From: an uncultured Gemmatimonadales bacterium
GTDB taxonomy: Bacteria > Gemmatimonadota > Gemmatimonadetes > Gemmatimonadales > GWC2-71-9
Assembly: GCA_963810165.1 (NCBI GenBank)
Contig: CAWEMG010000017.1
Span: forward strand, 7,229 to 71,228
Reading direction: 5' to 3'
DNA: 64,000 nucleotides
Part shown: one piece after another, positions 27,406 to 46,528 of the stretch
How positions within the stretch are numbered: position 1 is the first letter of the stretch
How the letters are laid out: every line of letters begins with the position of its first letter
The notes under the pieces: model-generated
Seen by the model: the letters and a program-made list of their open reading frames with translations, nothing else
Databases searched by the model: none
What the model was told of the DNA's origin: nothing
Position numbers and translations under genes: made by a program

Positions 27406-27445
27406 GGCGACCCGGCCACCCTGGTAGTGCTCTCCGGATGTCGGA

Positions 27446-29724: not shown

Positions 29725-29887
29725 CCGATGGCCGGCGAAGGCCTTGACGCCATCAGAGCTAAGTGGTAGCCTAGCATGCCGATAGTCTCCAATTCTATCC
29801 AATGTGACGAACCTCCTCAGTCTTTCCGCAGTCGCTTTGAGCGGTAGCGGGAAGGCGTTTGCAGTTCCCTTCCGCCGGAGGTGGCAC

Positions 29888-30373
29888 ATGGACGCTCTCG
29901 TCGCGCTCGCCATTAGTATCGCAATCCTCATTGCGGGCTGGACCTACGTCGCTATCGATGTAGCGAACTTGCCGGTATGGGCGGGGATCGTGGCGTGGGG
30001 GTGCTTCTTTGCCGCCGGCGGGAAGACGACAGGGCTCACCAAAACCATCGCGGCAAATCTCTCCGGGGTATTCTGGGCGTTCCTCGCGCTTCAGGCCCTG
30101 CCCCGAGCGGGCGGTGGCACCGCGATCCTGGCGGTTCTGGTTGGCCTGGCCGCGCTCATCATGGTGCTGCAGGCGAAGGCTTCGCTCTTATCGTTCATAC
30201 CGGGAGCCTTCCTCGGCGCCGCAACGGCGGTCAGCGTGGTGACGCGAACAGGAGCCGATGCCTACGCCCACCCGTGGATAAAGACAGCCATCGCGTTGGT
30301 GGTCGGAGCGGTGCTGGGTTACCTGTCCGAGATGCTGGCGGCGTCACTCACGGGGAGAAAGAGGACGGCGTAG
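29888..30373 (+). CDS. DUF1097-like integral membrane protein
   Basis: ATG 29888; 4-5 TM helices; WAGIVAWGCFFAAGG motif. Confidence 0.55.
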   Translation: MDALVALAISIAILIAGWTYVAIDVANLPVWAGIVAWGCFFAAGGKTTGLTKTIAANLSGVFWAFLALQALPRAGGGTAILAVLVGLAALIMVLQAKASLLSFIPGAFLGAATAVSVVTRTGADAYAHPWIKTAIALVVGAVLGYLSEMLAASLTGRKRTA

Positions 30374-30447
30374 AGTCGTCTATGGGGAGTAAACAAAATC
30401 CGGAGCCTCTCGGGCTCCGGATTCTTCTTTTCTGGCCTTCCTGCCGC

Positions 30448-31328
30448 TCATTCCGTCGCCTGATCCAGCTCCCCCAGTGCCTTGAGCACCCTGTCGGGCT
30501 GTTCCTCCTGGACGAACTGCCCCGCACCGGGAACGCTCTCCATGGAGAAGTCCGGGATCTTTTCCTCCAGCAGCTCCCGCTCGTCCTCTTTCACCCCGCT
30601 CGGGTGCGTCGACACCGCCGACCAGGAGCCGCACCGGCACCTGGATCTCGTGGAGCTGATCCTGAAGCGACTCGGTCTCTTTCGACTTGGACATGCTCCG
30701 GAAGGCGTCGATCGAGCCATTCAGGTCGGCTGCCTGGCCCGCGGTGTATTCCCGGATGACCCGCGGCGTCACCCAGCTGGTATCGCCCGAGTTCTTGACG
30801 ATCTCCTTGCGCACGTCGTGGCGGAGCTTGCTTTCACTGACGGCCAGCTTCGTAATAAAGCTGCCCATCCGCAACGCCTTCTTCATTCCTGGCGTCGCCG
30901 CGCTCTCGACGGGTCCACCATCGATGGAGAGGATGCCGCGGACCATGTTCGGGGTTGGCGATGGCAAGCCGCAGCGCGATGGAGGCACCAGTAGAATTCG
31001 CGATGAACAGGGCCTCGGTGATGCCGAGCTGCTCGAGAGCCTTGCTTATCCGCTGGGTCTGGGCGGTGAACGAATAATCCGCCTTGGGAGGATGAGAGGA
31101 GCGGCCGTATCCGAGGGGTTCGATCACAATGCAGCGATAGCCGCGCTGGACCAGCGGGCCGGTGACCTTTCGATACCCGTAGGCGCCGCCGAAGATCCCC
31201 GGGATCAGGACCACCGGCTCGCCTGAGCCGATCACCGTCGTATGGAGGATTTCGCCCGGAGCGACTTCGACGTGGTGAACCACGGCGCTGTCGAGGGAGG
31301 CCACAAGCGCCAGGCCGATGAGAATCAT
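30448..31328 (-). CDS. alpha/beta hydrolase, two frameshifts
   Basis: VVLIPGIFGG, nucleophile elbow IANSTGAS. Sequence continues through three frames. Breaks at G4 30951-30954 (IANP | NMVRGILSIDGG) and about 30612-30620 (LLVGG | STHPSGVKEDE). Confidence 0.7.
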
Positions 31329-31347
31329 TGAGGCGACGATTCCGAGA

Positions 31348-31549
31348 CTACCAGGAGTCGCCGGTGACCTTCTTTTTCCGCTTGCGGCGGAGCGCCGCGG
31401 CGGTCTTGATGGCCCGCGCTTCGCTCGGCTTCACGTAGTGCCTGCCGGCGCCGGAGCTCGCCAAAAAGCCCCGACTTCTGGAGCTTGCGCTTGAAGAGCT
31501 TGAGCGCGCGCTCCAGGCTGTCTTCATCGCTCAGCCTGACTTCCGTCAT
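31348..31549 (-). CDS. rpsU: 30S ribosomal protein S21 (frameshifted: 202 nt)
   Basis: MTEVRLSDEDSLERALKLFKRKLQKSGLFGELRRRQ then HYVKPSEARAIKTAAALRRKRKKKVTGDSW* in the next frame. One extra base about 31440-31442. Confidence 0.85.
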
Positions 31550-31625
31550 CCCGCTGTCCTTGTTGAGATGAAAGAGGGGGCCGGCGCCAGTGCCAGCCCC
31601 CTGTGATCGGTCGGCTATTGAACGG

Positions 31626-32042
31626 TTACCGCTCCGATGCTGTGAGAAGCATAGCGCGAGATTCCTCGAACCACAAGGCGAGCGCGGCCGCCGCCGCACC
31701 ACCGCCATTGCTTCCCTTGGCCGCGTCGGCGCCGGGCATTTCGGCGGAGGTCAGCACCTCTCCCTCCGTCACTTCCGGACGTCCCAGCTCGAACACCAGA
31801 GGGTTCCGTAAGGTGTATTCGGCGGCGCAGCGGCCCGACTCGAGCAACCCCTCCTTCGACTCACAGAAGCTGAGGGTCACGAGCTCACGATCGGCGACAC
31901 TCAGGACGTGGTAGCCGGCGAAGCCGGGGATCTTCCGAAGCAGGGGTACGAACTCATCGTGAAGCTGGCGGCGGAGCAGATCCAGGGAAGCCTTGTTGAT
32001 GGCGCCGTTCTTGGGGCTGTACCTGCGGATGGTGACGAACAT
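31626..32042 (-). CDS. hypothetical protein (ABM/Dabb-like fold suspected)
   Basis: MFVTIRRYSPKNGA...GYHVLSVADRELVTLSFCESKEG resembles small alpha+beta barrel proteins. Weak. Confidence 0.35.
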   Translation of the reverse strand: MFVTIRRYSPKNGAINKASLDLLRRQLHDEFVPLLRKIPGFAGYHVLSVADRELVTLSFCESKEGLLESGRCAAEYTLRNPLVFELGRPEVTEGEVLTSAEMPGADAAKGSNGGGAAAAALALWFEESRAMLLTASER

Positions 32043-32123
32043 GTCCTCTGAGACTCCTACCCTTTCAATAAACGACTTCAGAACCGTAGGGGGAACATAA
32101 TCGGATCGGCAGATGGAGGGTTA

Positions 32124-32930
32124 CTAGCGGCTCAGCAGCCCGGCATCGATCACCAGCGGAGCGCCCGTTACATACCGCGCCCGGTCCGACGCCAGGTACA
32201 GCACCGCGTGGGCCACGTCCTCAGGCTCGATCCAGGGCACCGGCAGGAGGTTGCCCGCAGACCGCTCCGCGATCTGCTGGGGCGTCAGCCCTTCCAGCGC
32301 GGCCAGGCCATCGTTCATCGGGGTGTTTACCCCGGTGGGATGGATCGAGTTCACCCGGATGCCGTGCGGCGCAAGCTCGATCGCCCAGGACTTGGTGAGA
32401 CCGGTCAGGCCCCACTTCGAAGCGGCGTAGTGGCTCAGTCGTCCCATGCCGCGAAGGCCGGCGATGGACGAGTTGTTGATGATCACCCCCGATCCCTGCC
32501 GGATCATGACGGGGATCACCCGACGCGCCACCAGCCACGACCCCTTCAGATTGATGTCCAGCATGGCGTCCCACGCCTCTTCGGTGAGCTCGTGGGCCAG
32601 CCCGTAGGCGCAGATGCCGGCGTTGTTGAAGAGGATATCGATCCTGCCGAACCGGTCTACTGTGCCGGTCACCGCGTGAGTTACGGCGGCATCGTCGCGG
32701 ACATCCCCGGCAAAGGTGGCGCATTCGGTGTCGAGCTTCCGGCACTCCTCGGCCAGCGAGTCGAGATCGGACGCCGAGCCCATGCTGTAACCGGGATATT
32801 TCAGAGGGCGGGCGATATCGAACCCGGCAATTCGCGCTCCCTCTCGGGCCAGCGCCAGGGCGGTGGCCCGTCCCTGCCCGTGGGCCGCTCCGGTGATGAA
32901 CGCGACCTTGCCGGCGAACTCGCCCGTCAT
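32124..32930 (-). CDS. SDR oxidoreductase of the carveol-dehydrogenase / mycofactocin-coupled-like subfamily
   Basis: GKVAFITGAAHGQGRA, inserted YPGYSMGSASDLD segment, NNAG, SHYAASK (YxxxK). Confidence 0.8.
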   Translation of the reverse strand: MTGEFAGKVAFITGAAHGQGRATALALAREGARIAGFDIARPLKYPGYSMGSASDLDSLAEECRKLDTECATFAGDVRDDAAVTHAVTGTVDRFGRIDILFNNAGICAYGLAHELTEEAWDAMLDINLKGSWLVARRVIPVMIRQGSGVIINNSSIAGLRGMGRLSHYAASKWGLTGLTKSWAIELAPHGIRVNSIHPTGVNTPMNDGLAALEGLTPQQIAERSAGNLLPVPWIEPEDVAHAVLYLASDRARYVTGAPLVIDAGLLSR

Positions 32931-33483
32931 ACCGGCTTGCCGGCCGTGGCAGCCTCGCGTACACCCTTTCGATACGGCTGAAGATACTCGTCCAGGTCGA
33001 CGTCGAGCGCGTTATTGAAGACGTTGGTGGCCACCATGAGCGCGCCGAACGCCGTGAGCGCCACGATTTGAGTCCGTTGGAAATGAGCAGCCAACCGCTG
33101 ATACACCTCCTCTGGCACCTTGAAGGGGACACCGCCAGAGCCCGCCCGAAGTCCACCACCGCTGTCTCCCGGTCGTCCAGCTTGAGACGCTCCGGATTCT
33201 CACCGGTCTGGATCAGCATCCGCCGGAAGAAGGTGGAACAGATGAGGCAGTCGCTTTCGGCCGAGATCGCGTGGGCGAAGAGCGTGGTCAGCCGCTCTCC
33301 CAGGAATGGCTGCACCGTGTCGCGGAGCGGATACCACTCCATCAGCGCGTTAAAGGCGGGCAGCGAGTGCAGCAGCGTCCGCTTCATGTTGGTCATGCGG
33401 GCGTGGCCGCGGACGTGTGCATCCGCCGCCGCGCGCGCATCAGGCGGCGCGTTCTCGGGGTCGAGCGGCTCGATACGGGGCAT
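32927..33483 (-). CDS. carboxymuconolactone decarboxylase/AhpD-like family protein, frameshifted
   Basis: ATG 33483; MPRIEPLDPENAPPDARAA..., CLIC (CxxC). Tail PEEVYQRLAAHFQRTQIVALTAFGALMVATNVF is in ORF 32927..33118. Break about 33125-33135. TGA overlaps the SDR ATG (ATGA 32927-32930). Confidence 0.7.
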
Positions 33484-33541
33484 GCTGGAAGGCTCCGAGC
33501 TAGGGGCGATCCGGCAATTTAGATCGGGAAAGCCCCGGGTG

Positions 33542-34150
33542 TCAGAGGACGCGGCGGGAAGCGACGTGCCGGGCCAGGTACCACTTGCCCCGCGGAGTCG
33601 ACAGGTCGTCGTATACCACGCCCCCGGCGCCGGCACTCGAATGGATAATGCGGTTGTTTCCGGCGTAGATGGCGACATGGTCCACTCCACGGCCCTTGCT
33701 GGAGAACAGCATCAGGTCGCCGGGCTTGAGAGCGGTGGGGGTACGAGGCAGGGCTCGCCCTGCTGTGGCCTGCTGGCGGGAAGTGCGGGGCAAGCTCACG
33801 CCATGTTGACCAAACACGTACTGCACGAAACCGGAGCAATCGAAACCAACAGCCGGCTTGGCGCCGCCATACAGATAGCGCTTCCCGAGATACTGGTCTC
33901 CGGTGGCCAGCACGCGGGTGGCGCTGGCGCTCGCCGTTGTGCGCGGCAACCGCGCCCTGGGAGTCGAGCGGGCCGGTTTGGCGGCGCGAACGCTGACCCG
34001 GCTGCCACCGAGGGTAGCGACGACTGCGATAGGACCGAGGGTTGCTCGCACGGCGGGACCGCCGAGGCGGGGAAGCGACAGATTGACCTGCGCAGACAAC
34101 ACGCTCGGGAGCCCCGCCAGGAGCGGCAGAGTACAAGCGATTAGTCTCAT
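33542..34150 (-). CDS. NlpC/P60 (C40) cell-wall peptidase
   Basis: ATG 34150; signal MRLIACTLPLLAGLPSVLSAQ; catalytic FDCSGFVQYVF and DHVAIY. Confidence 0.85.
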   Translation of the reverse strand: MRLIACTLPLLAGLPSVLSAQVNLSLPRLGGPAVRATLGPIAVVATLGGSRVSVRAAKPARSTPRARLPRTTASASATRVLATGDQYLGKRYLYGGAKPAVGFDCSGFVQYVFGQHGVSLPRTSRQQATAGRALPRTPTALKPGDLMLFSSKGRGVDHVAIYAGNNRIIHSSAGAGGVVYDDLSTPRGKWYLARHVASRRVL

Positions 34151-37102
34151 TGTGACCTCACTCACTGAGTGACCGGGAGCGGTCAATGCAGGAGGTATGC
34201 CAAGATCCTCCAGCACCAGGCCCGCCTCGGTGATAAACAGATGCCCCTGAGCGCGGTAGCCGCCTCGCTGCTCGGCGTAAGTCAACACCAGTCGCGACTT
34301 GGCGCGGGTCATTCCCACGTAGAGCAGTCGACGGGCCTCCTGGATCTCGGCGGTTCGATCCTCCTGAATCGCCCTCCAGCCGGGAAGCACCTGGTTCTCG
34401 ACACCCACGACGTAGACCCGGGAGAATTCCAGACCCTTGGTCGAATGGAGGGTCAGCAGATTCACACGGTTGGGATCGGTCTCAGCCCCTTCGCTGCTCG
34501 ATAGCGCTACCCGGCGCAGCATATCGTCGATGTGCTCGCCGAGAGTATTTCCAGCGCTGGCCTGTATCAGCATTCGGAGGCGCTCGACGGAATCCGGGTA
34601 GCGCTCATCCACGGGGCGATCCTCGCGCAAGCGCTCCATGAGTGCGCGGCCTCCAAGCCGCTCGATCACTTCCTCGAGCCCAGGCGCGCCTTCGGCACCC
34701 GCGGCAAGCTCGGCAGCGTAGATGTCCAGGCAGTCGCTGTACCGGCCAAGGGTGAAGGGCCGGGTGATGTCACGAAAGAGAGTCTCTTCCTTGGAAGGGG
34801 AGATCTGCGGATCGAGCGCCAGCGCCAGACCGAGCTGGTCCAGAAGGTGGACCAGAGCAACCGTGCGGGCACGGCGCACCCTCAGCTCGTTGAGCCTGGG
34901 CACGACCGCGGCGAGTACGACGGCGTCGTCGAGTGCGTGATGCTCTCTGCCGGGAGGAATGTTGTACCTCTCGGCGAGGTACTTGAGCTTGACGCTGCCA
35001 TCGACCACGGCGCGTGCCAGTGGGAGGGTGTCGTAGAAAACCAGCTCATCGAACCCCTCGAAGCCACCGCAGGCGCGCCGAAGAACCGGAACATCGAACT
35101 CCTGTCCGTTGTGTGCCACGACGAGGTCGCTTCCCACGAACTCGCGGAACCTCCGCCACACTTCGGACATCGGCGGCGCGCCGATCAGGTCCGCATCGGT
35201 GTAGCCGTGTATATCGGTGGCCTGCGACGAGATGGAGCGGCTACACGACACCAGGGAATGGAACTGATCCACCACCACGTTGTCCGCGAACCCGTACCGC
35301 CGCAATGTCTACGATCTGGGACGATTCGAAATCAAAGTCGCTGGTCTCGATATCGAAGGCGACAAAGTCGTCGAAATCGGCTTTCAGGGCCTCGGTGTGT
35401 ACCAGTTGAAGCGCCTTGAACAACCGGAGCGGTGACCCCCCGTCGGGGTCTTGGACGGCCCGTAGTACCAGATCGGCCAGCTCCGGGCACGTCGGCGGAC
35501 GTGAGCCGGTGAGCGCGAGTTATCCCCGCGCCTCGGAGCATGGCGATCAAGGGGATCTCGAGACCAGCTCTCGGTTCGACCCAGACCCGCCCTTCCGAGG
35601 CAACGCACTGCGTCAGTCGCTTGGCCAGGGCAAGAGCCCCCGGATAAAGCGATGGCTCCCTCAGATCATGATGGTACTCCTCCAGTGGATTCCGCCCGGC
35701 CCCGATGGGCCGCGCGAGCAGCTCATCCACCAGGCCGGTCAAGGATTGGTGAGACCGGCCCATGCCCCGCAGATTTTCCAAGTGATAGATCAAACGCCAC
35801 ACCCGTCTCCGGTCGGCATCGCCTTTGGGTCGTTGAGTGGCGAAGGCGCGCAGGTTCCTGAGAAAGTCCTTCTCTCTGGATGAGGCTTTGCGGATTTCCT
35901 GCCGCAGGGCGGGACTGAGAGCCAGAGCTGCCAGCGCTCCCAGCAGGATTGGGTCATCCGGCGAGCGAATGACACGCAAGGACGCGATTACCCATCCGAC
36001 GACTTTGTCGTCGACCAGGGCTTGGCCGCGGGCCATCCGACAGGGGATTCCCGCCCGAATCAACCGCTTCTCGAGATCCCGTCCCATCCAGCGGTACCGG
36101 TAGAGAATGGCATAGTCACCCCAGCCGGTGTCTCCCGTTGCGCGCTCGCTCAGAATGTCCCGAATGAGCCACTCGGCCTCGACTTCTTCGTTCTCGAATC
36201 CGCACGCCACCACCTCGAAGGGCGACTTCAGTGTGGTGTCGATCTGCTTTTCGAACAGTACCGGATTGCAGGCGATCAGTCTCCGGGCAGACTCCAGAAT
36301 CTGAACCGAGCATCTGCGGTTCTCCTCGAGCACGATCGGCTCGCGGAGATTGAAGTCCTCACGGAACCGGCCCATGATGCCGGGATCGGCACCGGTCCAC
36401 GAGAAAATCGATTGCTCGTCGTCTCCCACGCCAAAGAGACGGCGGTGGTCCTCGGCAAGCCGGCGGACGATGCCATACTGGGTCGGACTCAGATCCTGGA
36501 ACTCATCCACCAGCACGTAATCCCAGCGTGAGCGCAGCTCCTTGGCCGCGCTCTCATTGGTGCGAAGAAGTTTCTCGGTCAGCGTGATGAGATCATCGAA
36601 ATCCGCCAGATTCCTGGACCGCAGCGCCTCCTGGTACTGCCCGAAGAACGCCATGCCACGGTCGCTCAGTACCTTGCCTTGTAACTGGTGGAGACTGAAC
36701 TGCGTCGAGCGCGTGGGAGCATCGCTTGGCTGGAATGCGGAGCCGGCGCAGCACCCGCTCCTGGTACTCGCGGTCTGCCACGCCGAAGCCTGGTCGCAGG
36801 CCGCACCGCTCGGCGTAGTCCCGCAGGATCCTGAGGCAAATCGAATGCAGCGTCCCGCGGGTGACGTCGGCCGCGGTGACTCCCCGGGTGTCATGAAGGC
36901 GGGTGGCGATCTCCTCGGCAGCCTTGTTGGTAAAGGTCACTGCGAGAATTCGGCGTGGCGGGATGCCCAGCTCTTCGATCAGATGCTGGATGCGGTAGAT
37001 CAGGCAGTAGGTTTTCCCGGCTCCAGGGCCCGCAATGACCAGAAGCGGGCCCAGTGGCGCCTCGATCGCTCTGCGCTGCTCAGGGGTCGGCGCGAAACTC
37101 AT
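34151..37102 (-). pseudogene. UvrD/PcrA-family helicase with a DEDDh 3'-5' exonuclease domain nested between helicase motifs IV and V (at least 3 frame breaks as assembled)
   Basis: Helicase motifs: VIAGPGAGKTY (I), VTFTNKAAEE (Ia), VLVDEFQDL (II), GVGDDEQSIFSW (III), ENRRCS (IV), LHSTKGLEFSRVYV (V), LLYVGMTRAKSRLVL (VI). Exonuclease motifs: FVAFDIETSD (ExoI), VAHNGQEFDVPVL (ExoII), HHALDDAVVLA (ExoIII). Breaks about 36720, 35520 and 35285. No stop codon before the NlpC/P60 ATG in the final frame. Confidence 0.8.
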
Positions 37103-37782
37103 CAGCGGGCAGTACCGACGAAGGAGCGGGCCCACCGAACCAGAGCCTCAGCCAGCTCTTCCATCACAGAGCCGGCCGTGCGCCCGGATCGAGACGGAAC
37201 CCCGAACGAGTGGTCGGCCCCTTCGACGAGATGAAGTGTTGCGCGCGATCCCAGCCGCGAGCAGACCTCGGTGATGAGGTCCTGCTGGGCAAATTGATCA
37301 CGGGTTCCCTGAAGGAAGAGCATCGGTACATCAACCCTTTCGAGGTGCTCGGCCCGGCTGGTACCTGGTTTACCTGGAGGGTGAAGCGGAAACCCCAGAA
37401 ATGCCAGCCCGCGGATCCCCGGTAGCGAGGTGGCGGCCGCACCCGACGTCATGCGTCCGCCGAATGATTTGCCGCCCGCGATAACCGGGAGATCCGGCTC
37501 CAGCTCCTGAGCCTGGCTGACTGCTGAGCGCACTGTTGCTTCGGCGGTAGCGGGAGCGTCCGGCCGACGTGCTCCGGCCTCCATATAGGGAAACTGGTAG
37601 CGCAGGGTGGCGACCTCTCGCTCTGCCAGCGCCATGGCCATCGACTCGAGAAACCGATGGCGCATCCCCGCCCCGGCGCCGTGGGCCAGAACGTAGAGCA
37701 GCCAGGGATGGCGTGGACGGTCGAGTAAAGCTGACACCGGAGCCCGGCCACCATCGAGCAGGATCTTGAGCTCTTCAGTCAT
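37102..37782 (-). CDS. COG3571-type alpha/beta hydrolase (KANL3/Tex30-like)
   Basis: VLAHGAGAGMRHRF, AGGKSFGGRM, FLGFPLHPPGKP and LFLQGTRDQF. TGA overlaps the helicase ATG (37102). Confidence 0.7.
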   Translation of the reverse strand: MTEELKILLDGGRAPVSALLDRPRHPWLLYVLAHGAGAGMRHRFLESMAMALAEREVATLRYQFPYMEAGARRPDAPATAEATVRSAVSQAQELEPDLPVIAGGKSFGGRMTSGAAATSLPGIRGLAFLGFPLHPPGKPGTSRAEHLERVDVPMLFLQGTRDQFAQQDLITEVCSRLGSRATLHLVEGADHSFGVPSRSGRTAGSVMEELAEALVRWARSFVGTAR

Positions 37783-38827
37783 GCGACGCGGCGCCAGATC
37801 GAGCCCTTACACACTCCTCCATGCGCTTGTCATTCCGGAACCGCAGGAACACGGGCTGTCGCAGTAGCCCATCGTCCGTCCGCTCTGTGAACTTCACTTC
37901 GCACACCAGCCGAGGCTCGACCCAGGTGAGCCCCCGTTCCTGCGGGATCGGCCCACCGCACGGTGCGCGCGCGCGGCGGGTCTCTTCCAGGGTAGCTCGA
38001 ACCTGGGTCAGTTGCCTGTCGCTAAAGCCGGTTCCAGCCCGTCCGGAATAGGTGAGGATGCCGTCCACGTATTGTCCGAGTAGCAACGCGCCGAATCCGG
38101 TCCGCGCCCCCCTGGACGCAGTAAAGCCCACCACGACGAAGTCATCGGAGAGACGAGTGCGGATCTTCAGCCAGCTGGGAGACCGGCCGCTGCGATAGGG
38201 CGAGTCCGCTCGCTTCGCCAGAATTCCTTCCAGACCCAGCTTCAGGACCTCCTGATAAAGCAGCTCCCCGTCCCCCTCGACGTGGTCGAGGTAGCGTATC
38301 ACCCCTCCCGCAGACAGGAGCTTCAGCAGCAGTGCCTTTCGGGTCGAGAGCGGGAGAGGCCGCAAGTCGAAGCCTTCAGCAGCAAGAAGATCGAACGCAA
38401 AGAAGGTCGCGGGGATCTCGACGGCGGCCTGACGGATATCGAGGCTCCGGGTCAGCTTGGCACGCTGCTGAAGCCGTTGAAAGCTGGGCCGGCCGGAGCC
38501 ATCGAGCGCCACCACTTCGCCGTCAAGGACCAGGCCGTCTACGGGGAGGGCCGCTACCGCACGGCTCACTTCGGGAAATCCGGCCGAGAGATCGTTACCG
38601 TTGCGGGAGAAGAGCCGCGGCTTTCCCGAGACGCAGGTAGCCAGCAGGCGATACCCATCCAGCTTGAGCTCAAACAGCCATGCAGGGTCTGAGAAGGGGC
38701 GCTCCCTTGGCTCGGCCAGCATCAGGGGCGCGGTTTCGGCATTGATATCCCTTCTCGGCGGGCTTAGCCGCTCGAGGGCGGCGCGAATGCCGAGGGGGGA
38801 AAGCGGGCCGGATTTGGACTCAGGCAT
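37775..38827 (-). CDS. ATP-dependent DNA ligase (LigD ligase-domain/LigC-type; no Pol or PE domain)
   Basis: Adenylation motif I ELKLDGYRLLA, GLVLDGEVV, FFAFDLL, EGILAKR, WLKIR, OB-fold tail. 350 aa. Confidence 0.9.
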   Translation of the reverse strand: MPESKSGPLSPLGIRAALERLSPPRRDINAETAPLMLAEPRERPFSDPAWLFELKLDGYRLLATCVSGKPRLFSRNGNDLSAGFPEVSRAVAALPVDGLVLDGEVVALDGSGRPSFQRLQQRAKLTRSLDIRQAAVEIPATFFAFDLLAAEGFDLRPLPLSTRKALLLKLLSAGGVIRYLDHVEGDGELLYQEVLKLGLEGILAKRADSPYRSGRSPSWLKIRTRLSDDFVVVGFTASRGARTGFGALLLGQYVDGILTYSGRAGTGFSDRQLTQVRATLEETRRARAPCGGPIPQERGLTWVEPRLVCEVKFTERTDDGLLRQPVFLRFRNDKRMEECVRARSGAASHD

Positions 38828-38902
38828 GGACCAAATTTAGCTTATATAGACATCCCCGAACCTCTCCTTGCGGGCTCCCGCTTTGCGGGATATAGGAACC
38901 TT
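38828..38902. promoter_or_regulatory. divergent ligase/ku control region, AT-rich, possible leaderless starts
   Basis: 75 nt. ATATAG hexamers at 38844-38849 and 38890-38895; the latter ends 7 nt before the ku ATG. TAAATT on the minus strand lies 6 nt before the ligase ATG. No Shine-Dalgarno visible for either gene. Confidence 0.35.
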
Positions 38903-39766
38903 ATGCCTCCCCGTCCAATCGCCTCGGCCAGCATCTCGTTCGGCCTCGTGTCGGTCCCGGTAAGCCTCTACTCGGCCAGCGAGTCGTCGGCCAACGTCAG
39001 CTTCAACATGCTGCACAAGACCTGTGGCAGCCGGTTGAAGCAGCAGTACATCTGCCCCCAGGAAGGCGGCGTGGTGGAAAAGGACGAGATCGCCAAAGGC
39101 TACGAGTTCTCCAAGGGTCAGTACGTCACCTTTACTCCCGAGGAGATCAAGGCCCTGGATGAGAAGGCCACCAACTCGATTGATATCGCCGAATTCGTGC
39201 CCCTCGACGCGGTAGACCGGATGTACCTGGACAAGGTGTACTACCTGGGCCCGGACAAGGGTGGGGACCGGGCGTACCGGCTGCTGGGAGAGGCCCTCAA
39301 AGTCACTGGCCGAGCTGCGCTGGGGCAGTACTCCGCGCGTGGCAAGCAACACCTGGTGCTGGTCCGGCCGTTGGACGGCGTCTTGGTCATGGAGCAGCTG
39401 CATTATCCCGCCGAGCTCCGGCCGGCTGCGGAGGTCCCGCACCCGGAGACTCCGGTCAAGGAGACCGAGCTTGCCCTGGCCAAACAGCTGATCGAACAAT
39501 CGTCAACCGACGACTTCCGCCCGGAGAACTATCACGATACGGTGCGGGAGCGAGTGATCGACGCGATCCAGCGAAAGGTCGAGGGCCAGGAGATTACGGC
39601 AGAGGCTCCGCCGCCGGAAACGAAGATCATAGATCTGATGGACGCGCTGAAGGCCAGCCTGGCCAAGCAAGGGGCGGCAGCCTCCGAGAAAAAGTCCTCC
39701 AAACGTGGGGACGAGGACGAGGAGGAGTCGGTGCCGAGGAAGCGAAAGGCGGGAGGCAGGGGCTAG
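38903..39766 (+). CDS. ku: Ku protein (non-homologous end joining)
   Basis: ISFGLVSVPVSLYSA, KGYEF, YVTFTPEEI, YLDKVYYLGPDKGG and a basic Lys/Arg C-terminal tail. Confidence 0.95.
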   Translation: MPPRPIASASISFGLVSVPVSLYSASESSANVSFNMLHKTCGSRLKQQYICPQEGGVVEKDEIAKGYEFSKGQYVTFTPEEIKALDEKATNSIDIAEFVPLDAVDRMYLDKVYYLGPDKGGDRAYRLLGEALKVTGRAALGQYSARGKQHLVLVRPLDGVLVMEQLHYPAELRPAAEVPHPETPVKETELALAKQLIEQSSTDDFRPENYHDTVRERVIDAIQRKVEGQEITAEAPPPETKIIDLMDALKASLAKQGAAASEKKSSKRGDEDEEESVPRKRKAGGRG

Positions 39767-39795
39767 GTCTCGACTCGCGACTCGCGACTCGAGAC
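39767..39795. repeat. 29-nt near-perfect palindrome built from CTCGCGA repeats
   Basis: GTCTCGA-CTCGCGA-CTCGCGA-CTCGAGAC; 14-nt arms with one mismatch. Lies between the ku stop and the DUF72 ATG (39800). Confidence 0.6.
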
Positions 39796-39799
39796 TTCC

Positions 39800-40522
39800 A
39801 TGAACATCCTGACCGGCACCAGCGGGTGGTCGTACAAGGAGTGGAGGGGAAGCTTCTACCCCGCCAAGCAGCCGGCCGAAGACATGCTTCGCTTCTACGC
39901 GGGAAATTTTCCCGCCGTCGAAGTCAACAACTCGTTCTATCGCATCCCCGCAGAGCGGGTCTTGGCAAACTGGGCCGAACAGGTGCCCGAGACCTTCCGC
40001 TTCATCATGAAGGCATCCCGACGGATAACCCACAGTAACCGCCTGAAGGACGAGGACGGCTCGCTGGGGTACTTTCTGCGCGCGATAAATCCGCTGGGTA
40101 AGCGACTCGGCCCTACCCTGTTTCAGCTACCGCCCAACTTCCAGAAAGACATCGACCGGCTGCGAGCCTTTCTGGCGGCGCTGCCCCGCCAGTGGCCGGC
40201 CGCAATGGAGTTTCGCCATTCGTCCTGGTTCGTGGATGAGGTTTACGACCTGCTCAGCCAGCGGGATGTCGCCCTGGTGGCGGTAGATGAAGAGGAGTCG
40301 GAGGGCAGCGGCTCACCGCTGGTACCCACCGCTTCGTGGGGGTATCTGAGACTGCGACGCGCTGCGTACGACGAGCCGGCATTGGAGCAGTGGGTCTCCC
40401 GGATTCGAGAAAACCGGTGGACCGATGCCTATGTCTTTCTCAAGCATGAGGATGGCAGCCCCACTGGACCCGCAGCAGCCGCCCACATGGGCCGCATCGT
40501 CGCCCAACAGTCGCAAACGTGA
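39800..40522 (+). CDS. DUF72 (YecE-like) protein, second copy
   Basis: ILTGTSGWSYKEWRGSFYP, VEVNNSFYRIP, FQLPPNF and MEFRHSSW. Confidence 0.85.
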   Translation: MNILTGTSGWSYKEWRGSFYPAKQPAEDMLRFYAGNFPAVEVNNSFYRIPAERVLANWAEQVPETFRFIMKASRRITHSNRLKDEDGSLGYFLRAINPLGKRLGPTLFQLPPNFQKDIDRLRAFLAALPRQWPAAMEFRHSSWFVDEVYDLLSQRDVALVAVDEEESEGSGSPLVPTASWGYLRLRRAAYDEPALEQWVSRIRENRWTDAYVFLKHEDGSPTGPAAAAHMGRIVAQQSQT

Positions 40523-40607
40523 CCGAGGTCACGACCCCGAACGACCTCCTGGGCTAGAGTGTGCGTCCGTGGAAGAAGCACACCGTGCATAGCTCACGGA
40601 GGAAACA

Positions 40608-40964
40608 ATGGCAAACAAGATCAACAGCTGGAACGATGAGGACAACTGGTGGCGCAGCAACTTCAGTTCTCGGCCCTATGCCACCGGCCGCAGCTATGAG
40701 GATTTCCGTCCCGGCTACCAGTACGGCTTCGAATCAGGCCAGCACCACATGGGTCGGAAGTGGAATGACGTCGAATCAGACCTGAAGACCGGCTGGGACC
40801 GGTTCCAGAGTCGGGGTAACAGCACCTGGGAGAACGTGAAGGACGCAGTTCGCGATGCCTGGCATCGCGTGACCGGGCAGAAAGATCTCGATACCAGCCG
40901 CATGAGTGAGGCGAGCCGTACCTCCGGGTCGGACCCGTTTGGACCGGGCAATCGCGGCCGTTAG
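40608..40964 (+). CDS. Trp/Arg-rich hypothetical stress-type protein
   Basis: MANKINSWNDEDNWWRSNF...GWDRFQSRGNSTWENVKDAVRDAWHRVTG. Followed by a terminator. Confidence 0.5.
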   Translation: MANKINSWNDEDNWWRSNFSSRPYATGRSYEDFRPGYQYGFESGQHHMGRKWNDVESDLKTGWDRFQSRGNSTWENVKDAVRDAWHRVTGQKDLDTSRMSEASRTSGSDPFGPGNRGR

Positions 40965-40982
40965 TGGACTATGAGGAAAATG

Positions 40983-41017
40983 GAGCCCGGGACGAGTGTC
41001 CCGGGCTCGTCCTTTTG
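40983..41017 (+). terminator. rho-independent terminator
   Basis: GAGCCCGGGAC-GAGT-GTCCCGGGCTC followed by GTCCTTTTGTG. Confidence 0.6.
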
Positions 41018-41266
41018 TGCCCTCGTGCCGCATTTCTGCGTGACGTGCGACACGGCAGCCAGGGTCCCGAACGTGTCTCTTAAGGCTCGTCAGGGCGAGT
41101 GGATAGCGCCAGGAAATTACGTGGGTCGCAAGTCACGTGGCAGCGTCCGCCATTCCTTCCGCCATCCCGCTCAAGCCCCTGCACTGCAATCGATACCAGG
41201 TCTGCCACCAGCGGCGGCTCACAACAGAGGTACTGGCGAACCGGTCAGCACAAAAGGAGCAACACG

Positions 41267-41890
41267 ATGACGATGCCAAACACGGAAGCCCGCGCCGGTC
41301 AGCAAGGCGGCGGTCAGGAAGGCGGAGGCAGCGCCCGGGAACAGATCCGTGAGGTGAAGGATCAGGTGGTCACACAGGCCCGCAGCAGTCTGGAGCAGGC
41401 CCGCGACCGAGCCAGCTCGAGTCTGGGAGAGAGCAAGGGCCAGTTTGCCGAGCAGTTCGGCACTATCGCTGAGGCGCTCCGCCGCACTACGGAGCATCTG
41501 CGCTCCGAGGACCAGCAGCGGATCGCGGGAATCACGGACACGGTAGCCCGCCAGGTCGAGCAGGTCGCCGAATACCTTAGAAACAAGGATGCCGCGGCCA
41601 TGAAAACCGATCTGGAGAACCTGGCGCGCCGGCAGCCCGCCATAGTGTTGGGTGGGGCTCTGATTCTCGGCCTGATCGGCGCGCGTTTCCTCAAGAGCTC
41701 GCGGAAGTCCCGTGACGGCTCGCGGCGCTTCGGCGGCGAGCGCCGGTACGGCAACGGCGGATACGATCAGTTCTCCAGTGACCCACAGTTCTCGGGCGGC
41801 TACGATCGCTTTGCTGAGGACACCGAATCACAGTGGCAGACGCCGTCCACGGGTCGCGGCTATCAGGGAGGCGGCTATGCCGGCGCTTAG
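41267..41890 (+). CDS. hypothetical membrane-anchored stress protein
   Basis: AAGGAG 41254-41259, ATG 41267. Gln/Glu/Arg helical region, one TM (AIVLGGALILGLIGARFL), Gly/Tyr-rich tail. Confidence 0.5.
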   Translation: MTMPNTEARAGQQGGGQEGGGSAREQIREVKDQVVTQARSSLEQARDRASSSLGESKGQFAEQFGTIAEALRRTTEHLRSEDQQRIAGITDTVARQVEQVAEYLRNKDAAAMKTDLENLARRQPAIVLGGALILGLIGARFLKSSRKSRDGSRRFGGERRYGNGGYDQFSSDPQFSGGYDRFAEDTESQWQTPSTGRGYQGGGYAGA

Positions 41891-42275
41891 AGAGGATCGG
41901 AGCATCGGCGAGCTGTTTGGCCAGCTTAGCCAGGACATGACGCTCCTGGTCAGGCAAGAGCTGCAGCTCGCGCGGGCGGAGATGAGTGACAAGATCTCCC
42001 GCCTGACGACTAACCTGATCTCGGTGGGGGCGGGTGGTTTCGTCGCCTACCTCGGTGGCTTGGCACTGGTTGCGGCCCTGATCCTGGCCATCCGGGATCT
42101 GGCGAATATTTCCCTCGCGGTCTCGGCGCTGATCGTGGGCGCGGTTCTCGCGATCGCAGGCTACATGATGCTGCAGAAGGGCCTGAAGGAACTGAAGCGG
42201 GTGGACCTCGCCCCCCGCCGAACAGTTGAATCCCTGAAAGACGACGTCCAGTGGGCAAAGGAGCAACGGTCATGA
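41877..42275 (+). CDS. holin-X / DUF1469-family small membrane protein
   Basis: SIGELFGQLSQDMTLLVRQELQLARAEM followed by two TM helices. ATG 41877 overlaps the previous stop. Confidence 0.6.
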   Translation: MPALREDRSIGELFGQLSQDMTLLVRQELQLARAEMSDKISRLTTNLISVGAGGFVAYLGGLALVAALILAIRDLANISLAVSALIVGAVLAIAGYMMLQKGLKELKRVDLAPRRTVESLKDDVQWAKEQRS

Positions 42276-43285
42276 GTGAGTACCAGAGACAGAATCCCGG
42301 GCTCGCTTACGAGCCGACCAATCAGGAATTCGGATCGAGCGCCGAATCACGAGGCGAGAAGAGCCCCGAGGAGATCGAGCGCGAGATTGAGGAGACCCGT
42401 AACCGGATGAGTCAGAATATCGACGAGCTGGGAGACCGGCTCAGCCCTCAGAACCTCAAGCACGAGGCCAAGAGCGCCATCAAGAACGCGGCCTCCGATG
42501 CGGTCTCCAACGTAGGGGAGCAGGCCCGTCGCACCGGCTACCGTCTGGTGGACGTGATTCGCGAAAACCCGCTTCCCGTCATTGCCGTCGGCGCCGGGGT
42601 CACCTGGCTGCTGACGCAGCGTACCAACAGCGACGTCTCGGGAGACCGGATGGCCCGGTACGCCTACACCGGTCCCGATCGGCGCCAGGGCGAAGGCGAG
42701 CTCCGGCATCAAGACATCGGATCGGCGGAGCGGTCAGTGGCATCAAGGAAAAAGTGAGCGAGACGGCCAGCGGGATTGCCGGGCGGGCGAGCGAGCTTGC
42801 CAGCGGCACCCAGGAGCGGGCCGGAGAGATCGGCTGGCAGGCGCGCCGCCAGACCGAGCGGGTCAAGACCAACTTGGAGCACGTGGCGGAAGAAAATCCG
42901 CTCACGATCGCGATCGGCGCCACCATCCTCGGCATGGCCCTCGGTCTGCTGCTTCCCGGCACCGAGCGGGAAAATGAGCTGATGGGACCGGCTCGCGACC
43001 AGTTGGTCGACCGGGCCGAGCGGACTGCGGAGCGGGTGAAGGACGCGGCGGTTGAGGCCGGGCGCGAGGTGAAGGATGCGGTGCAGACTGAGATCACCGA
43101 GCGCACCCGAGGTCAAGCAGGCGGTGCAGGAAGCCGGCATGATGGTGAAGGAGCAGGTGAAGGAGTCGGCCAAGAAGGTGAAGAAAGGAAGCAGGACGCG
43201 ACGAATCGGGCAGAGTCGGCAACCGGAACAGCGACCGACCGCCGGGCTAACAACCCGGCAAGGGACGGGACAAAGGAGACCATGA
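42272..43285 (+). pseudogene. DUF3618-domain protein (at least 2 frame breaks; 3' end uncertain)
   Basis: SPEEIEREIEETRNRMSQNIDELGDRLSP (DUF3618), TM PLPVIAVGAGVTWLL. Continues as GIKEKVSETASGIAGRASE...NPLTIAIGATILGMALGLLLP...APEVKQAVQEAGMMVKEQVKESAKKVKK across three frames. ATGA overlap with the holin-like gene. Confidence 0.55.
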
Positions 43286-43802
43286 GTCTCGACTCACTGG
43301 AGAAACTGTTCCTGGAAGAGCTGAAGGACATCTACAACGCCGAGAAGCAGCTGACCCGGGCGCTCCCGCGGATGGCCAAAGCCGCCGAGTCGCCTGAGCT
43401 GAGGCAGGCCTTCACCAGCCACCTGAAGGAAACCGAGGGCCAGATTCAGCGGCTCGAGCGGGTCTTCCAGGAGCTGGGCCAGGCCGCCCGGGGCAAGAAG
43501 TGCAAGGGCGATGGAAGGGTTGATCGAAGAGGGCAAGGAAATGATGGAGGAGGAGGGCGAGCCCCAGGTGCTGGATGCGGCCCTGATTGGCTGCAGCCCA
43601 GAAGGTGGAGCACTACGAGATCGCCGCGTATGGCTGTCTTCGCACCTATGCCGAGCTCCTCGGCTACTCCGAGGCCGCGCAGCTGCTGCGGCAGAACCTC
43701 AGGAAGAGGAAGCGGCCGACAAGAAGCTGAACCGTTGGCCGAGGGTGGCATCAACGAGCGGCGGCAATGGCCGGCGCAGGACAGGACGAAGAGGACGAAT
43801 AG
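43282..43802 (+). pseudogene. YciE/DUF892 ferritin-like protein (at least 4 frame breaks in 0.5 kb)
   Basis: AAGGAG 43273-43278, ATG 43282. MSLDSLEKLFLEELKDIYNAEKQLTRALPRMAKAA...HLKETEGQIQRLE. Then [37 protein letters not shown] and [11 protein letters not shown] each lie in different frames. Confidence 0.6.
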
Positions 43803-43824
43803 CGAACGCTGCAGCCTGCAAACA

Positions 43825-43860
43825 AAGAAGCCCGGGAGCGCTCCCGGGCTTCTTGTTTTG
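43825..43860. terminator. bidirectional rho-independent terminator
   Basis: 13-bp stem AAGAAGCCCGGGA / TCCCGGGCTTCTT with loop GCGC. Flanked by A-rich 5' and GTTTTGTG 3' sequence, between convergent genes. Confidence 0.65.
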
Positions 43861-43897
43861 TGTCGCTTCAAACTACCGCGCCTTGCTGCTTCCTTCG

Positions 43898-46528
43898 TCA
43901 GCGGACTCTTCGTCCTCCTCGGACGAGTGCTGCCACCGCGGTCTTGAGGTCGCAGGCGAGGTCGCGTTCCCGCCGCAGCGCGCCGATCAGCGCCTCGGCC
44001 TGCTTCATCTGGAAGCTGAGCGCGCCGGCAGACTCCATCGCGTGATCGACCACCGTCTTCTGGGCGGTCAACGACTCCACGGTGGCGCGGATGCCGAGGG
44101 CAAGCGCTTCGGCGCGAGCCAGGCGCTGTTCGGCCCGCTCCAGCTGACGCTTCCGGGACTCGAACCCCTTGAGCGTCTCCTCGGTGGTCTTGAACTGATC
44201 CTGGGTCGCCTGCAGCATCGTCCGGGTCTCCTCGATCTCGCGCCGCGCCGACCCGATGCTCTGGACGTCTTCGACGGTGCGCTCGGCCAGATCGAACACG
44301 TGCTTCACCTGCGCCTCGATCGCTTCCACGCCGGCCTGGCGGGCCAGGGTCTGCTCCAGCGCCTTCGCGGCCTGGGCCTGCGCCGACTCCCACTTCGCGA
44401 GCAGCTCCTCGAAGTGCGCCAGCTGGCGGTCGATGTACTTGAGGGCCGCCGCACGCGTTTCCAGCTCCGACGAGACCTGCTGCAGGGTCCCGGCGCGTTC
44501 CTCGGCGTGCGCCAGGGTGGTGCCGACGACGCGGGTGACTTCCTCCATCCGCTGGGCGGCTTCCGCGGCTTCCTTCCGGAGGGCCGACGCACGGGTCAGA
44601 TGCTCGGTCGCCTTGTCGAGGGCGCCCTGCCGCTGGTCGAGCTCCTGGCCCAGGAGGCGGATCTTCTCTTCCACCTGGTTGATCTGCTGGGTCCGGCTTT
44701 CCATGGCCCGGACCGAGTCGTCCACCAGACCCATCCGGCGCTCCGCCTCTTCGACTGACGAGGTGACCACCGAGATCGTATCGCCGAGACGCTGGGCGCC
44801 TTCGGCCTGACGGCTGAGCTGGGCGAAGCGGGTTTCGGCCGCCTCCATCCGGGTCTTGAGGCCCTCGGTGCGGTCCTGCAGCTCGGCGCTCATCGAGCCG
44901 ATCTCGCCCAGGGTGCGCTGGACGTTCTGCACCATCTCACTCTGAGAATGGATCTGCACCATCGAACCCTTGACCTGCTCGACCTCGACGCGGATCCGTT
45001 CCACCATCGGCTCCAGACCGCTCAGCTCCTTCACCTGGGTTTGGACCTTACGGGTCCACACGTCGGCGTTGGCGAGCCAGGCCTGCGTCTCGCCATGGGT
45101 CTCCCGGAGACGGCTCATCTCCTCCGACGCGGAGCGCATCTGCTCCAGACCGTCGGCCAGCAGCTCGCGGGTGCCCTTGAGCGCGGCCAGCTGCTCGACG
45201 GCCTGCTCGACGCCCGGCCTGATCTCATCCAGCCGCCGCATCCGGGCGGCCAGGTCGGTTGCCATGTTGTCCAGCCGGGAGACGTCCTGCCGCAGTGAGC
45301 TCGACCGGGCCGCTTCCTGGGCCAGCGCGGTGACTTCCTTGGAGAGATCGGCGATCTGCTCGCCCACGTTCCGGACCTGGGTCTGGACCGCCGCGGTGCC
45401 CTGGCTGGCGGCGTCCAGCACGGCGAGACGAGCCTCGCACTCCTTCACCGCGTTGCGCAGATCGGCGATGCGCTCGCTGACCGCGTGCAGACCACGATGC
45501 TCCAGCTCGAAGCCCTCGCTGCTCTTCCGCATCTGCTCGCGCAGGTCGGTGAGCGCCTGGCGGGCGGACTGCTGGGCATCCTCGATCTTCTGCGAGGTGC
45601 CCTGAAGCTCCTCGGTACGGGACAACACCTTGTCCTGAATCGTCTTCACTTCGCTCAGCTTGGCTTCGATCGGACCAAAGCGGCGGATCTGCTCTTCCTG
45701 CCGGCGGAGCCAGGCATCCAGCTCGCGGTCCATACGGGTAAGCTGGGCGATCTGGCTGGCGGCGCGGTCGATGGCCTCGCGCTCCTGCTCCAGCATCGTG
45801 GTCTTCTGGGCGACCTGATCGGCCAGCGCCTTCAGCACGGCCAGCTGGTGCTGAACGTCAGGGATCGAGGTGGAGGCCTGATTGATCGGCTCCAGCGCCC
45901 GCTCGACCGACTGAACTCTCCGGACCATATCCTCCAGCTTGCCGGTGGCGGCCTGGAAGTCCTGATCGAAGTTCTCCAGCCGGGATGTCGTATGACGGTG
46001 GGCGGTGAGGGCGTCGTCGTGCTGGGTCCGCATCCGGGCAACGTTCTCGGCCTGCTCGGAGAGCTGGGTCCGGAGGGTTTCGGAATCGGTCCGGAGCGAG
46101 TTGAGGGGACCCTGCAGGCTGAGGAACGAATCCACCTGCTCGCGCAGCAGCAGCGCGGTCTCGACCTTGTCGCTCAGCCCGGCCATCTGGGTCTGGAGCC
46201 GCTCCACGCCTTCGCTGGCATGGCCGAGCCGGACCTCGGTGGCAGTCTGGGTCTTGATGACTCGCTCGACCTGCTCCTCCGCCATACTCAGCTGACTGCC
46301 GAGCCTCTCGAGCCCGGCGACTTGGCGCTCGACTTCTTCGCAGCGTTCCCGAAGTGCGTCGAACTCAGCCGCACGCTCCAGGATGGGAGCGAGCGACCTC
46401 AGGTCGTTCGCGGCGGCTTCGGCGCGGGCGACCAGCGCCTCCAGCGCGGCGGCAACATTTCGTCCGCTCGAATCGACGGCGACCACCGAGTCGTCATCGC
46501 GGCGGCGACCTTTCAGGAAGCTGACCAT
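43898..46528 (-). CDS. 876-aa coiled-coil protein, unknown function
   Basis: Uninterrupted ORF. Almost entirely heptad-like E/A/R/Q/L-rich helix. No P-loop, TM or signal peptide visible. Confidence 0.8.
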   Translation of the reverse strand: MVSFLKGRRRDDDSVVAVDSSGRNVAAALEALVARAEAAANDLRSLAPILERAAEFDALRERCEEVERQVAGLERLGSQLSMAEEQVERVIKTQTATEVRLGHASEGVERLQTQMAGLSDKVETALLLREQVDSFLSLQGPLNSLRTDSETLRTQLSEQAENVARMRTQHDDALTAHRHTTSRLENFDQDFQAATGKLEDMVRRVQSVERALEPINQASTSIPDVQHQLAVLKALADQVAQKTTMLEQEREAIDRAASQIAQLTRMDRELDAWLRRQEEQIRRFGPIEAKLSEVKTIQDKVLSRTEELQGTSQKIEDAQQSARQALTDLREQMRKSSEGFELEHRGLHAVSERIADLRNAVKECEARLAVLDAASQGTAAVQTQVRNVGEQIADLSKEVTALAQEAARSSSLRQDVSRLDNMATDLAARMRRLDEIRPGVEQAVEQLAALKGTRELLADGLEQMRSASEEMSRLRETHGETQAWLANADVWTRKVQTQVKELSGLEPMVERIRVEVEQVKGSMVQIHSQSEMVQNVQRTLGEIGSMSAELQDRTEGLKTRMEAAETRFAQLSRQAEGAQRLGDTISVVTSSVEEAERRMGLVDDSVRAMESRTQQINQVEEKIRLLGQELDQRQGALDKATEHLTRASALRKEAAEAAQRMEEVTRVVGTTLAHAEERAGTLQQVSSELETRAAALKYIDRQLAHFEELLAKWESAQAQAAKALEQTLARQAGVEAIEAQVKHVFDLAERTVEDVQSIGSARREIEETRTMLQATQDQFKTTEETLKGFESRKRQLERAEQRLARAEALALGIRATVESLTAQKTVVDHAMESAGALSFQMKQAEALIGALRRERDLACDLKTAVAALVRGGRRVR

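Follow-up and report, generated by a model that had tools for sequence, protein, structure and literature searches.

Most descriptions of bacterial nonhomologous end joining (NHEJ) give it two proteins, Ku and LigD. An NHEJ locus with additional genes was found in a 64,000-nucleotide stretch of contig CAWEMG010000017.1 from an uncultured Gemmatimonadales bacterium (the window). Here, a DNA ligase gene that is divergent from ku encodes only the ligase core (Lig), without the phosphoesterase (PE) and polymerase (Pol) domains of full LigD, and is chained to the genes of a serine hydrolase and of a UvrD-family helicase with a built-in DEDDh 3'-5' exonuclease (the helicase-exonuclease). We consider it probable that this is a chromosomal NHEJ locus whose LigD was pared to its ligase core and in which the hydrolase and the helicase-exonuclease are older LigD partners, that is, additions to the system rather than replacements for the missing domains.

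Ligase identity and loss of LigD domains

Family models support the assignment to NHEJ made in a first-pass annotation of the window, with Ku passing TIGR02772 (Ku_bact; 288.5 bits; cutoff, 150) and the ligase passing the LigD-specific TIGR02779 (NHEJ_ligase_lig; 303.3 bits; cutoff, 227.75). That annotation had named clustering with LigC- or LigB-type ligases as evidence that would speak against its reading. The enzyme is of the LigD type: it remains below NF006078 (PRK08224; 125.8 bits; cutoff, 296), a model whose reading as LigC-like is our own, its library title being merely "ATP-dependent DNA ligase," and it fails the LigB-like and other ligase equivalog models. The description of the gene as a ligase-only open reading frame (ORF) of 350 amino acids (aa) that overlaps the next gene by 8 nucleotides (nt) agrees with the coordinates and with Pfam, which finds PF01068 and PF04679 only, so that the protein consists of the adenylation and OB domains. 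The annotation was likewise correct that the 64 kb encode neither Pol nor PE: the Pol domain (PolDom) and PE (PF13298) were absent from the window both in tblastn searches with multidomain LigD relatives and in phmmer searches of all ORFs of at least 60 aa.

The closest homologues of the ligase are LigDs of Gemmatimonadales that occur as ligase-only proteins (346 to 350 aa; 76 to 93% identity), as PE-Lig, or as Lig-Pol. Pol and PE are also absent at two related ligase-only loci, L001 and L098, and a neighbor-joining tree of ligase domains groups both with the window in a single clade. The sister of this clade is L002, a fully syntenic locus in which PE, Lig, and Pol are followed by the same hydrolase and helicase-exonuclease genes, and the ligase-only clade as a whole is nested deep among operons having full LigD and the helicase. 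When the three ligase-only proteins were aligned with six full-length LigDs, they were found to keep the LigD N terminus MPxSKS (in L098 even KSDPPAPY), to jump from there to the PE-Lig linker, and to stop right past the OB-domain motif FLRFRDDKRxEEC, where Pol starts in full LigDs. Judged by alignment and phylogeny, the window ligase is a LigD orthologue from which PE was deleted in frame and Pol removed, and the ligase-only state is a derived deletion inside the full-LigD clade. Because that state is derived within the clade, the hydrolase and the helicase-exonuclease are older than the domain loss.

No motif of the ligase core has been lost, and the start codon and the upstream spacer with its conserved blocks are retained in the ligase-only genes. 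With ratios of nonsynonymous to synonymous substitution rates (dN/dS) of 0.15 against L098 (dS, 0.89) and 0.11 against L001, the reduced ligase has been under purifying selection since the domain loss.

Association of the hydrolase and the helicase-exonuclease with LigD

Gene neighborhoods were compared in two surveys of 80 loci each. In the hydrolase survey, a hydrolase alignment was scanned over one genome per GTDB species; in the helicase survey, metagenomes were scanned with the family-specific middle of the helicase-exonuclease, and the orthologues counted below share 65% identity or more with the query (P0122) in the central region. The loci were annotated by phmmer, the queries being ligase, Pol, PE, Ku, DUF72, and the helicase-exonuclease.

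The hydrolase gene lies directly upstream of the helicase gene in all 29 orthologue loci with enough upstream sequence. In 22 of the 23 longer loci (a count that includes L119 after a closer look), the gene before the hydrolase is that of full LigD, seen either as PE-Lig-Pol or, where the contig ends, by its Pol part, and the sole ligase-only locus among the 23 is L098, which in this respect resembles the window. The operon with full LigD was found in L002 and in L085 to L130. Spacing is tight: the match-to-match gap between hydrolase and helicase is 0 to 21 nt in 34 of 36 loci, and that between Pol and hydrolase is at most 100 nt in 40 of 42. Conservation of the order ligase, hydrolase, helicase-exonuclease beside ku, on which the first-pass annotation had made its reading depend, was thus found in relatives.

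The same counts bear on what the annotation had concluded from this order, namely, that the hydrolase and the helicase-exonuclease form an end-processing module that replaces Pol and PE and defines a distinct type of NHEJ. The proposal draws on a ligase without Pol and PE in a window where neither was found, on the tight chaining of the three genes, on an exonuclease that could in principle trim 3' ends, which is one PE function, and on a ligase-only state that is stable in three lineages. It was not borne out: both genes come after an entire PE-Lig-Pol LigD in the 22 related operons and in L002, neither product has the polymerase activity needed for the gap filling done by PolDom, and no coadaptation is seen in Ku. 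We regard such a replacement as quite unlikely. Since the two genes are normally found together with an entire LigD and are older than the loss, they cannot have arisen as substitutes.

In the hydrolase survey, LigD was located within 10 kb of the hydrolase in 28 of the 80 loci, mostly in Gemmatimonadota, and in 19 of these 28 Pol is followed directly by the hydrolase on the same strand. Beyond the main group, hydrolase-LigD loci were found in Verrucomicrobia (L028 and L030), in a Bacteroidota-labelled metagenome-assembled genome (L012), in Nevskiaceae (L049), and in Xanthobacteraceae (L063); a further one (L078) belongs to Longimicrobiales, a Gemmatimonadota order. Gene orientation varies among these loci, and the LigD domain order in L012, L028, and L030 is Pol-PE-Lig instead of PE-Lig-Pol. 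By our own estimate, the chance expectation for hydrolase-LigD linkage in a 20-kb neighborhood is well under 1%. Because this linkage is met again in different phyla, gene orientations, and LigD architectures, the case for a functional link of the hydrolase, and of DUF72 (see below), to NHEJ is reasonably good. That for the helicase-exonuclease is weaker, because it is tightly coupled in only one fairly shallow clade, and there the unrelated gene of an NlpC/P60 cell-wall peptidase is as syntenic.

Several observations weigh against reading these genes as partners in NHEJ. No LigD was found within 10 kb in 52 of the 80 hydrolase loci. Distant homologues of the helicase-exonuclease (45 to 53% identity) are mostly located away from NHEJ genes, the exceptions being the L032/L162 clade, in which the helicase-exonuclease lies 5 to 7 kb from ku-ligD-hydrolase, and L067, which has a third arrangement. 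The NlpC/P60 gene follows the helicase in 35 loci, synteny being broadly conserved in the clade, and because it is equally syntenic, adjacency alone is no proof of shared function. A fold search with the hydrolase model returned generic esterases and lipases only, with no specific function. The helicase gene is not intact in the window and is possibly a real, very recent pseudogene in this strain. Lastly, PMC7719229 describes the Pol domain as a main Ku contact in Mycobacterium tuberculosis and Pseudomonas, because of which the ligase core alone may be poorly recruited.

Some of these points would be explained if the arrangement were inherited synteny without shared function, with the hydrolase and the helicase-exonuclease serving elsewhere, for example in general repair, replication restart, or metabolism. 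The peptidase gene is just as syntenic, the fold search matches the hydrolase to generic esterases only, and most proteobacterial hydrolase homologues, like the distant helicase-exonucleases, have no NHEJ neighbors. Mere inheritance of gene order is nevertheless unlikely in our view. It accounts poorly for hydrolase-LigD linkage that recurs in Verrucomicrobia, the Bacteroidota-labelled genome, Nevskiaceae, Xanthobacteraceae, and Longimicrobiales with differing orientations and LigD orders, for a frequency of 28 in 80 loci against the estimated chance expectation, and for start and stop codons that overlap or almost abut.

Organization of the locus

The locus consists of two divergent units, ku-DUF72 and ligD-hydrolase-helicase/exonuclease (Table 1). 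In the latter, the overlap between the first two genes extends from the hydrolase ATG (37782 to 37780) to the ligase TGA (37777 to 37775), and the hydrolase TGA (37104 to 37102) and the helicase ATG (37102 to 37100) have one A in common in the sequence TGATG. The first-pass annotation had reported the overlap of the hydrolase stop with the helicase start, the divergent ku, the intervening spacer, and the adjacent DUF72 gene as they are found here. The ligase, hydrolase, and helicase-exonuclease genes are putatively cotranscribed.

Table 1. Features of the NHEJ locus and the adjoining peptidase gene (window coordinates)
Feature	Coordinates	Strand	Characteristics
DUF72 gene	39800..40522	+	240 aa; PF01904, 201 bits; 33 nt 3' of ku, codirectional
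ku	38903..39766	+	287 aa, basic C-terminal tail; PF02735, 168 bits; TIGR02772
Divergent ku-ligase spacer	38828..38902	.	75 nt; conserved blocks directly before both ATGs
LigD-type ATP-dependent DNA ligase gene	37775..38827	-	350 aa; PF01068 + PF04679; motif I Lys55
PF20408 (Abhydrolase_11, COG3571-type) serine hydrolase gene	37102..37782	-	226 aa; 176 bits
UvrD-family superfamily 1 (SF1) helicase gene with DEDDh 3'-5' exonuclease	34158..37102	-	~980 codons; broken in the assembly
NlpC/P60 cell-wall peptidase gene	33542-34150	-	signal-peptide-like N terminus; ATG at 34150

The NlpC/P60 gene begins 8 to 14 nt past the expected helicase stop and would not be expected to accompany repair genes in an operon. 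A strict terminator scan detected no terminator between it and the helicase gene.

Ku, the ku-ligase spacer, and DUF72

Ku is strongly conserved, with dN/dS values of 0.02 to 0.04 against L001 and L098. A comparison of Ku C termini revealed no adaptation in the ligase-only loci, where this end of the protein does not differ from that found alongside full LigD.

In the spacer, the blocks CATATATCCCGCAAAGCGGGAGCCCGCAAGGAG and TAAATT-N6-ATG are common to L001, L098, and L126 and are partly present in L002, L094, L096, L097, L109, and L114. The block on the ku side reads TTGCGG-N17-TATAGG-N6-ATG, and TAAATT-N6-ATG lies on the ligase side. Conservation runs up to both start codons and leaves no space for a Shine-Dalgarno sequence. 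Because the conserved blocks abut both ATGs without such room, the sequence suggests divergent promoters giving leaderless transcripts from the spacer. A strict terminator scan found nothing there, and since a strict sigma-70 scan of the spacer called no promoter, we only infer the promoter role of the blocks.

DUF72 proteins are UvdE-like TIM barrels that are enriched near polB2 damage-response operons (PMC11791011). In the hydrolase survey, 22 of the 25 Ku-containing loci, across several phyla, have a DUF72 gene no more than 10 kb from Ku, and in the helicase survey it was found near Ku in all eight Ku loci that are uncut by a contig end. A second DUF72 paralogue of the window (11292 to 12038, plus strand), about 39% identical to the first, is located far from any repair gene.

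Domain architecture and broken reading frame of the helicase-exonuclease

Pfam matches on the fragments of the window gene give UvrD domains 1A/1B/2A, a DEDDh exonuclease, and UvrD_C (PF00580 and PF13361 match, and PF00929 does so at 1.7e-15). The exonuclease is inserted between the N-terminal UvrD core (residues ~1 to 390) and the UvrD_C motifs (~880 to 946). Because the solved structures of UvrD, PcrA, Rep, and UvrD1 align to residues 8 to 388 and 880 to 946 only, and a PolC-type exonuclease aligns to residues 578 to 739, the exonuclease is predicted to occupy the position of the 2B domain. The 21 orthologues compared conserve the SF1A motifs GPGAGKT, VDEFQD, GDDEQSIFSW, LHSTKGLEF, and YVGMTRA, and the DEDDh motifs FDIETS (ExoI), AHNGQEFD (ExoII), and HHALDDA (ExoIII) are present in the window translation and conserved in the orthologues. 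The protein remains below the equivalog cutoffs of Rep (339 versus 951), PcrA (326 versus 911), and UvrD (266 versus 1144).

The first-pass annotation had described the helicase as a gene of roughly 980 codons at 34151 to 37102. Its domain content and length hold once the frames are stitched, but it is not one ORF, as the frame changes three times. On the minus strand, the coding signal begins in frame 1 at 37102 and moves to frame 0 at ~36707, to frame 2 at ~35485, and back to frame 1 at ~35284, after which no stop is met and the frame reads into the NlpC/P60 gene (ATG at 34150). Neither of two candidate natural stops, TGA 34164-62 and TGA 34160-58, is in frame. Compared with L001, one base is inserted at each of 36707 and 35283, and the shift at ~35433 to 35522 lies among several indels. 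Further single-base insertions lie at ~34183 and ~34169. The stitched frames give 979 residues. Intact 979-aa orthologues carrying UvrD-helicase, RNase_T, and UvrD_C are abundant, with a best identity of 87%; in L001 the gene is intact as a 985-aa call, and in L098 the match is uninterrupted. The frame-corrected gene has a dN/dS of 0.09 against L089, its closest orthologue at the DNA level.

Locus L001, a 20.7-kb piece of a 1.23-Mb contig, is collinear with positions 27080 to 46823 of the window at 88% nucleotide identity, and 7 of 22 window genes are split between frames relative to L001 proteins. PBP1A, which lies outside this collinear stretch, is split at ~6513 between its two catalytic domains. 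Single-base insertions outside long homopolymers make up most of the indels. Since rpsU, PBP1A, and others are broken alike, the frameshifts are most likely assembly errors. The names of several related contigs are typical of long-read metagenome bins, to which the frameshifts may be tied. In an assembly that looks so error-prone, ORF-based readings of the window need frame correction. The split genes include those for rpsU/S21 (31443), Abhydrolase_1 (30610 and 30948), a 185-aa protein (33125), DUF3618, DUF892, and a dynamin-like GTPase (~28640), and the frame-split stretches extend over 6450 to 6560, 27933 to 29721, 30451 to 31549, 32930 to 33483, and 42272 to 43799.

The broken frame, together with the loss of two LigD domains, might be taken to mean that the locus is decaying, with NHEJ being lost, the ligase a remnant, and the helicase-exonuclease, with its three frame changes and no in-frame stop, a pseudogene. 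This is very improbable. The ligase core has retained all its motifs with a dN/dS of 0.11 to 0.15 at dS values of up to 0.89 since the loss, the frame-corrected helicase is itself constrained and is uninterrupted in both L001 and L098, and like frameshifts in rpsU, PBP1A, and five more window genes point to assembly error. For the same reasons, that is, other genes broken alike and the dN/dS of 0.09 after frame correction, pseudogenization of the helicase was judged unlikely.

Protein identity to L001 is mosaic along the locus. Ku, the ligase, the hydrolase, DUF72, and an SDR gene product are 91 to 98% identical, compared with just ~67 to 83% for the pieces of the helicase-exonuclease and ~71% for NlpC/P60. 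The window helicase is nearer to those of L089, L084, and L002 (82 to 83% nucleotide identity) than to that of L001. This pattern suggests a tract of recombination or allelic replacement over the helicase and NlpC/P60 genes (33545 to 37102).

Membership of the locus in the Gabija defense system was considered and rejected: PADLOC gave generic GajB (UvrD-like) matches to the helicase only and none to the ligase, hydrolase, Ku, or DUF72, and no GajA-like domain was seen in Pfam scans of the locus genes or NlpC/P60.

The PF20408 hydrolase

The hydrolase belongs to PF20408 (Abhydrolase_11; KANSL3/TEX30-like), with a score of 175.9 bits (cutoff, 27). Among 48 diverse homologues, Ser106 of the GxSxG motif (with G104 and G108) and Asp162 never vary, and conservation of His191 is 90% or higher. 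An AlphaFold model (pLDDT, 97) predicts a compact, lidless alpha/beta fold, and its best matches at low root mean square deviation are to generic esterases and to serine hydrolases that likewise lack a lid and have no known function (3trd, 2fuk, 2o2g, and 2i3d). The gene has a dN/dS of 0.13.

Proposed role in end joining

In the mechanism proposed here, Ku would bind broken ends and recruit or stimulate the ligase core through its conserved C-terminal arm. The helicase would unwind from the end, with its 3'-5' exonuclease trimming the 3' strand (compare UvrD1-Ku and WRN-Ku). The lidless Ser-Asp-His hydrolase could remove an ester- or acyl-linked blocking group or modify a partner protein, the UvdE-like DUF72 may cut damaged termini, and the ligase core would seal. 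All of these biochemical steps, and the recruitment by Ku, are inferred from what is known of the protein families. PMC9638933 reports that the C terminus of M. tuberculosis Ku binds LigD and stimulates ligation. With Pol and PE gone, repair in this lineage would be limited to compatible or trimmed ends, unless the domains are encoded elsewhere in the genome.

A more far-reaching version holds that, in Gemmatimonadota and a few further phyla, the hydrolase, the helicase-exonuclease, and the Ku-linked DUF72 are all hitherto unrecognized NHEJ components which, in the ligase-only lineage, perform the entire end processing, giving a resection-based joining free of Pol and PE in which a WRN-like helicase-nuclease works with Ku. 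We find this conceivable but doubtful.

What the locus adds to the two-protein scheme is three genes that travel with ku and ligD: the hydrolase in several phyla, the helicase-exonuclease in one Gemmatimonadales clade, and DUF72 at most Ku loci. Their products are candidates for missing end-processing or regulatory factors of NHEJ. A search of the open-access literature, which is weak evidence, found no link of PF20408/COG3571, DUF72, or a UvrD-DEDDh fusion to NHEJ. The ligase-only lineage amounts to a natural domain deletion experiment, in which a LigD orthologue is under selection without Pol, the domain thought to mediate Ku binding, and it lets one ask whether the ligase core is sufficient with Ku or whether the neighbors are needed. 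If the association reflects inherited gene order only, the locus would be an ordinary variant of the nonconventional NHEJ type described in the next section.

Comparison to known systems

As in canonical NHEJ (M. tuberculosis Rv0937c/Rv0938 and the PE-Lig-Pol LigD of P. aeruginosa), genes for Ku and a LigD-type ligase adjoin here, in divergent orientation, and relatives of the locus have the Pseudomonas-type order PE-Lig-Pol. In contrast to the canonical two-component system, LigD lacks PE and Pol, and a PF20408 hydrolase, a UvrD-DEDDh protein, and DUF72 are present in addition.

Mycobacterial UvrD1 is reportedly a Ku-dependent helicase (Sinha et al. 2007). Like the window helicase, it has a UvrD/PcrA-type SF1A motor, and its structure (9dci) matches residues 8 to 388 with an E value of 2.5e-58. 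Unlike UvrD1, the window helicase has an internal DEDDh exonuclease and extra helices and is encoded in the ligD operon, and its link to Ku is putative. In WRN, which Ku70/80 binds and stimulates, a DnaQ-like 3'-5' exonuclease is joined to a RecQ helicase. By analogy only, the window protein likewise combines a DEDD-type 3'-5' exonuclease and a 3'-5' helicase in one polypeptide with a putative tie to Ku-dependent end joining; its helicase is of the SF1 UvrD type, whereas that of WRN is a superfamily 2 (SF2) RecQ, and its exonuclease is internal, whereas that of WRN is N-terminal.

The combination of Ku with a LIG-only protein is a recognized class, termed "nonconventional NHEJ" by Sharda et al. 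2020 (PMC7719229). Reviews also mention LigD homologues in which one domain or another is missing (PMC8656161). Nonconventional NHEJ and the LigC-backed end joining of mycobacteria likewise pair Ku with a LIG-only protein. The window ligase differs from that of LigC-backed joining in being a LigD orthologue by model score and phylogeny, and its descent, by deletion, from a full LigD of the same locus can be traced.

Lhr-Core, an MPE nuclease, and an ATP-dependent ligase form the "ligase-associated DNA damage response" cluster, as passages of PMC10140301 citing Ejaz and Shuman 2018 describe it. There, as here, the operon that holds the ATP-dependent ligase gene also encodes a helicase and a nuclease or hydrolase. 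The window ligase, however, scores only 104.9 bits on TIGR04120 (cutoff, 400), and the Lhr/MPE cluster has an Lhr (SF2) helicase, other nuclease families, and no Ku.

Flanking genes

Downstream of ku-DUF72, a cluster at 40608 to 43800 (plus strand) comprises two hypothetical genes, a Phage_holin_3_6-like gene, DUF3618, and DUF892 and is syntenic in L001 and L002. As a speculation, this cluster might be coregulated with NHEJ under dormancy or desiccation. A UDG-superfamily glycosylase gene (26683 to 27405, plus strand) lies about 10 kb from the locus, and on the other side a gene at 43898 to 46528 (minus strand) encodes an 876-aa coiled-coil protein without an informative Pfam match.

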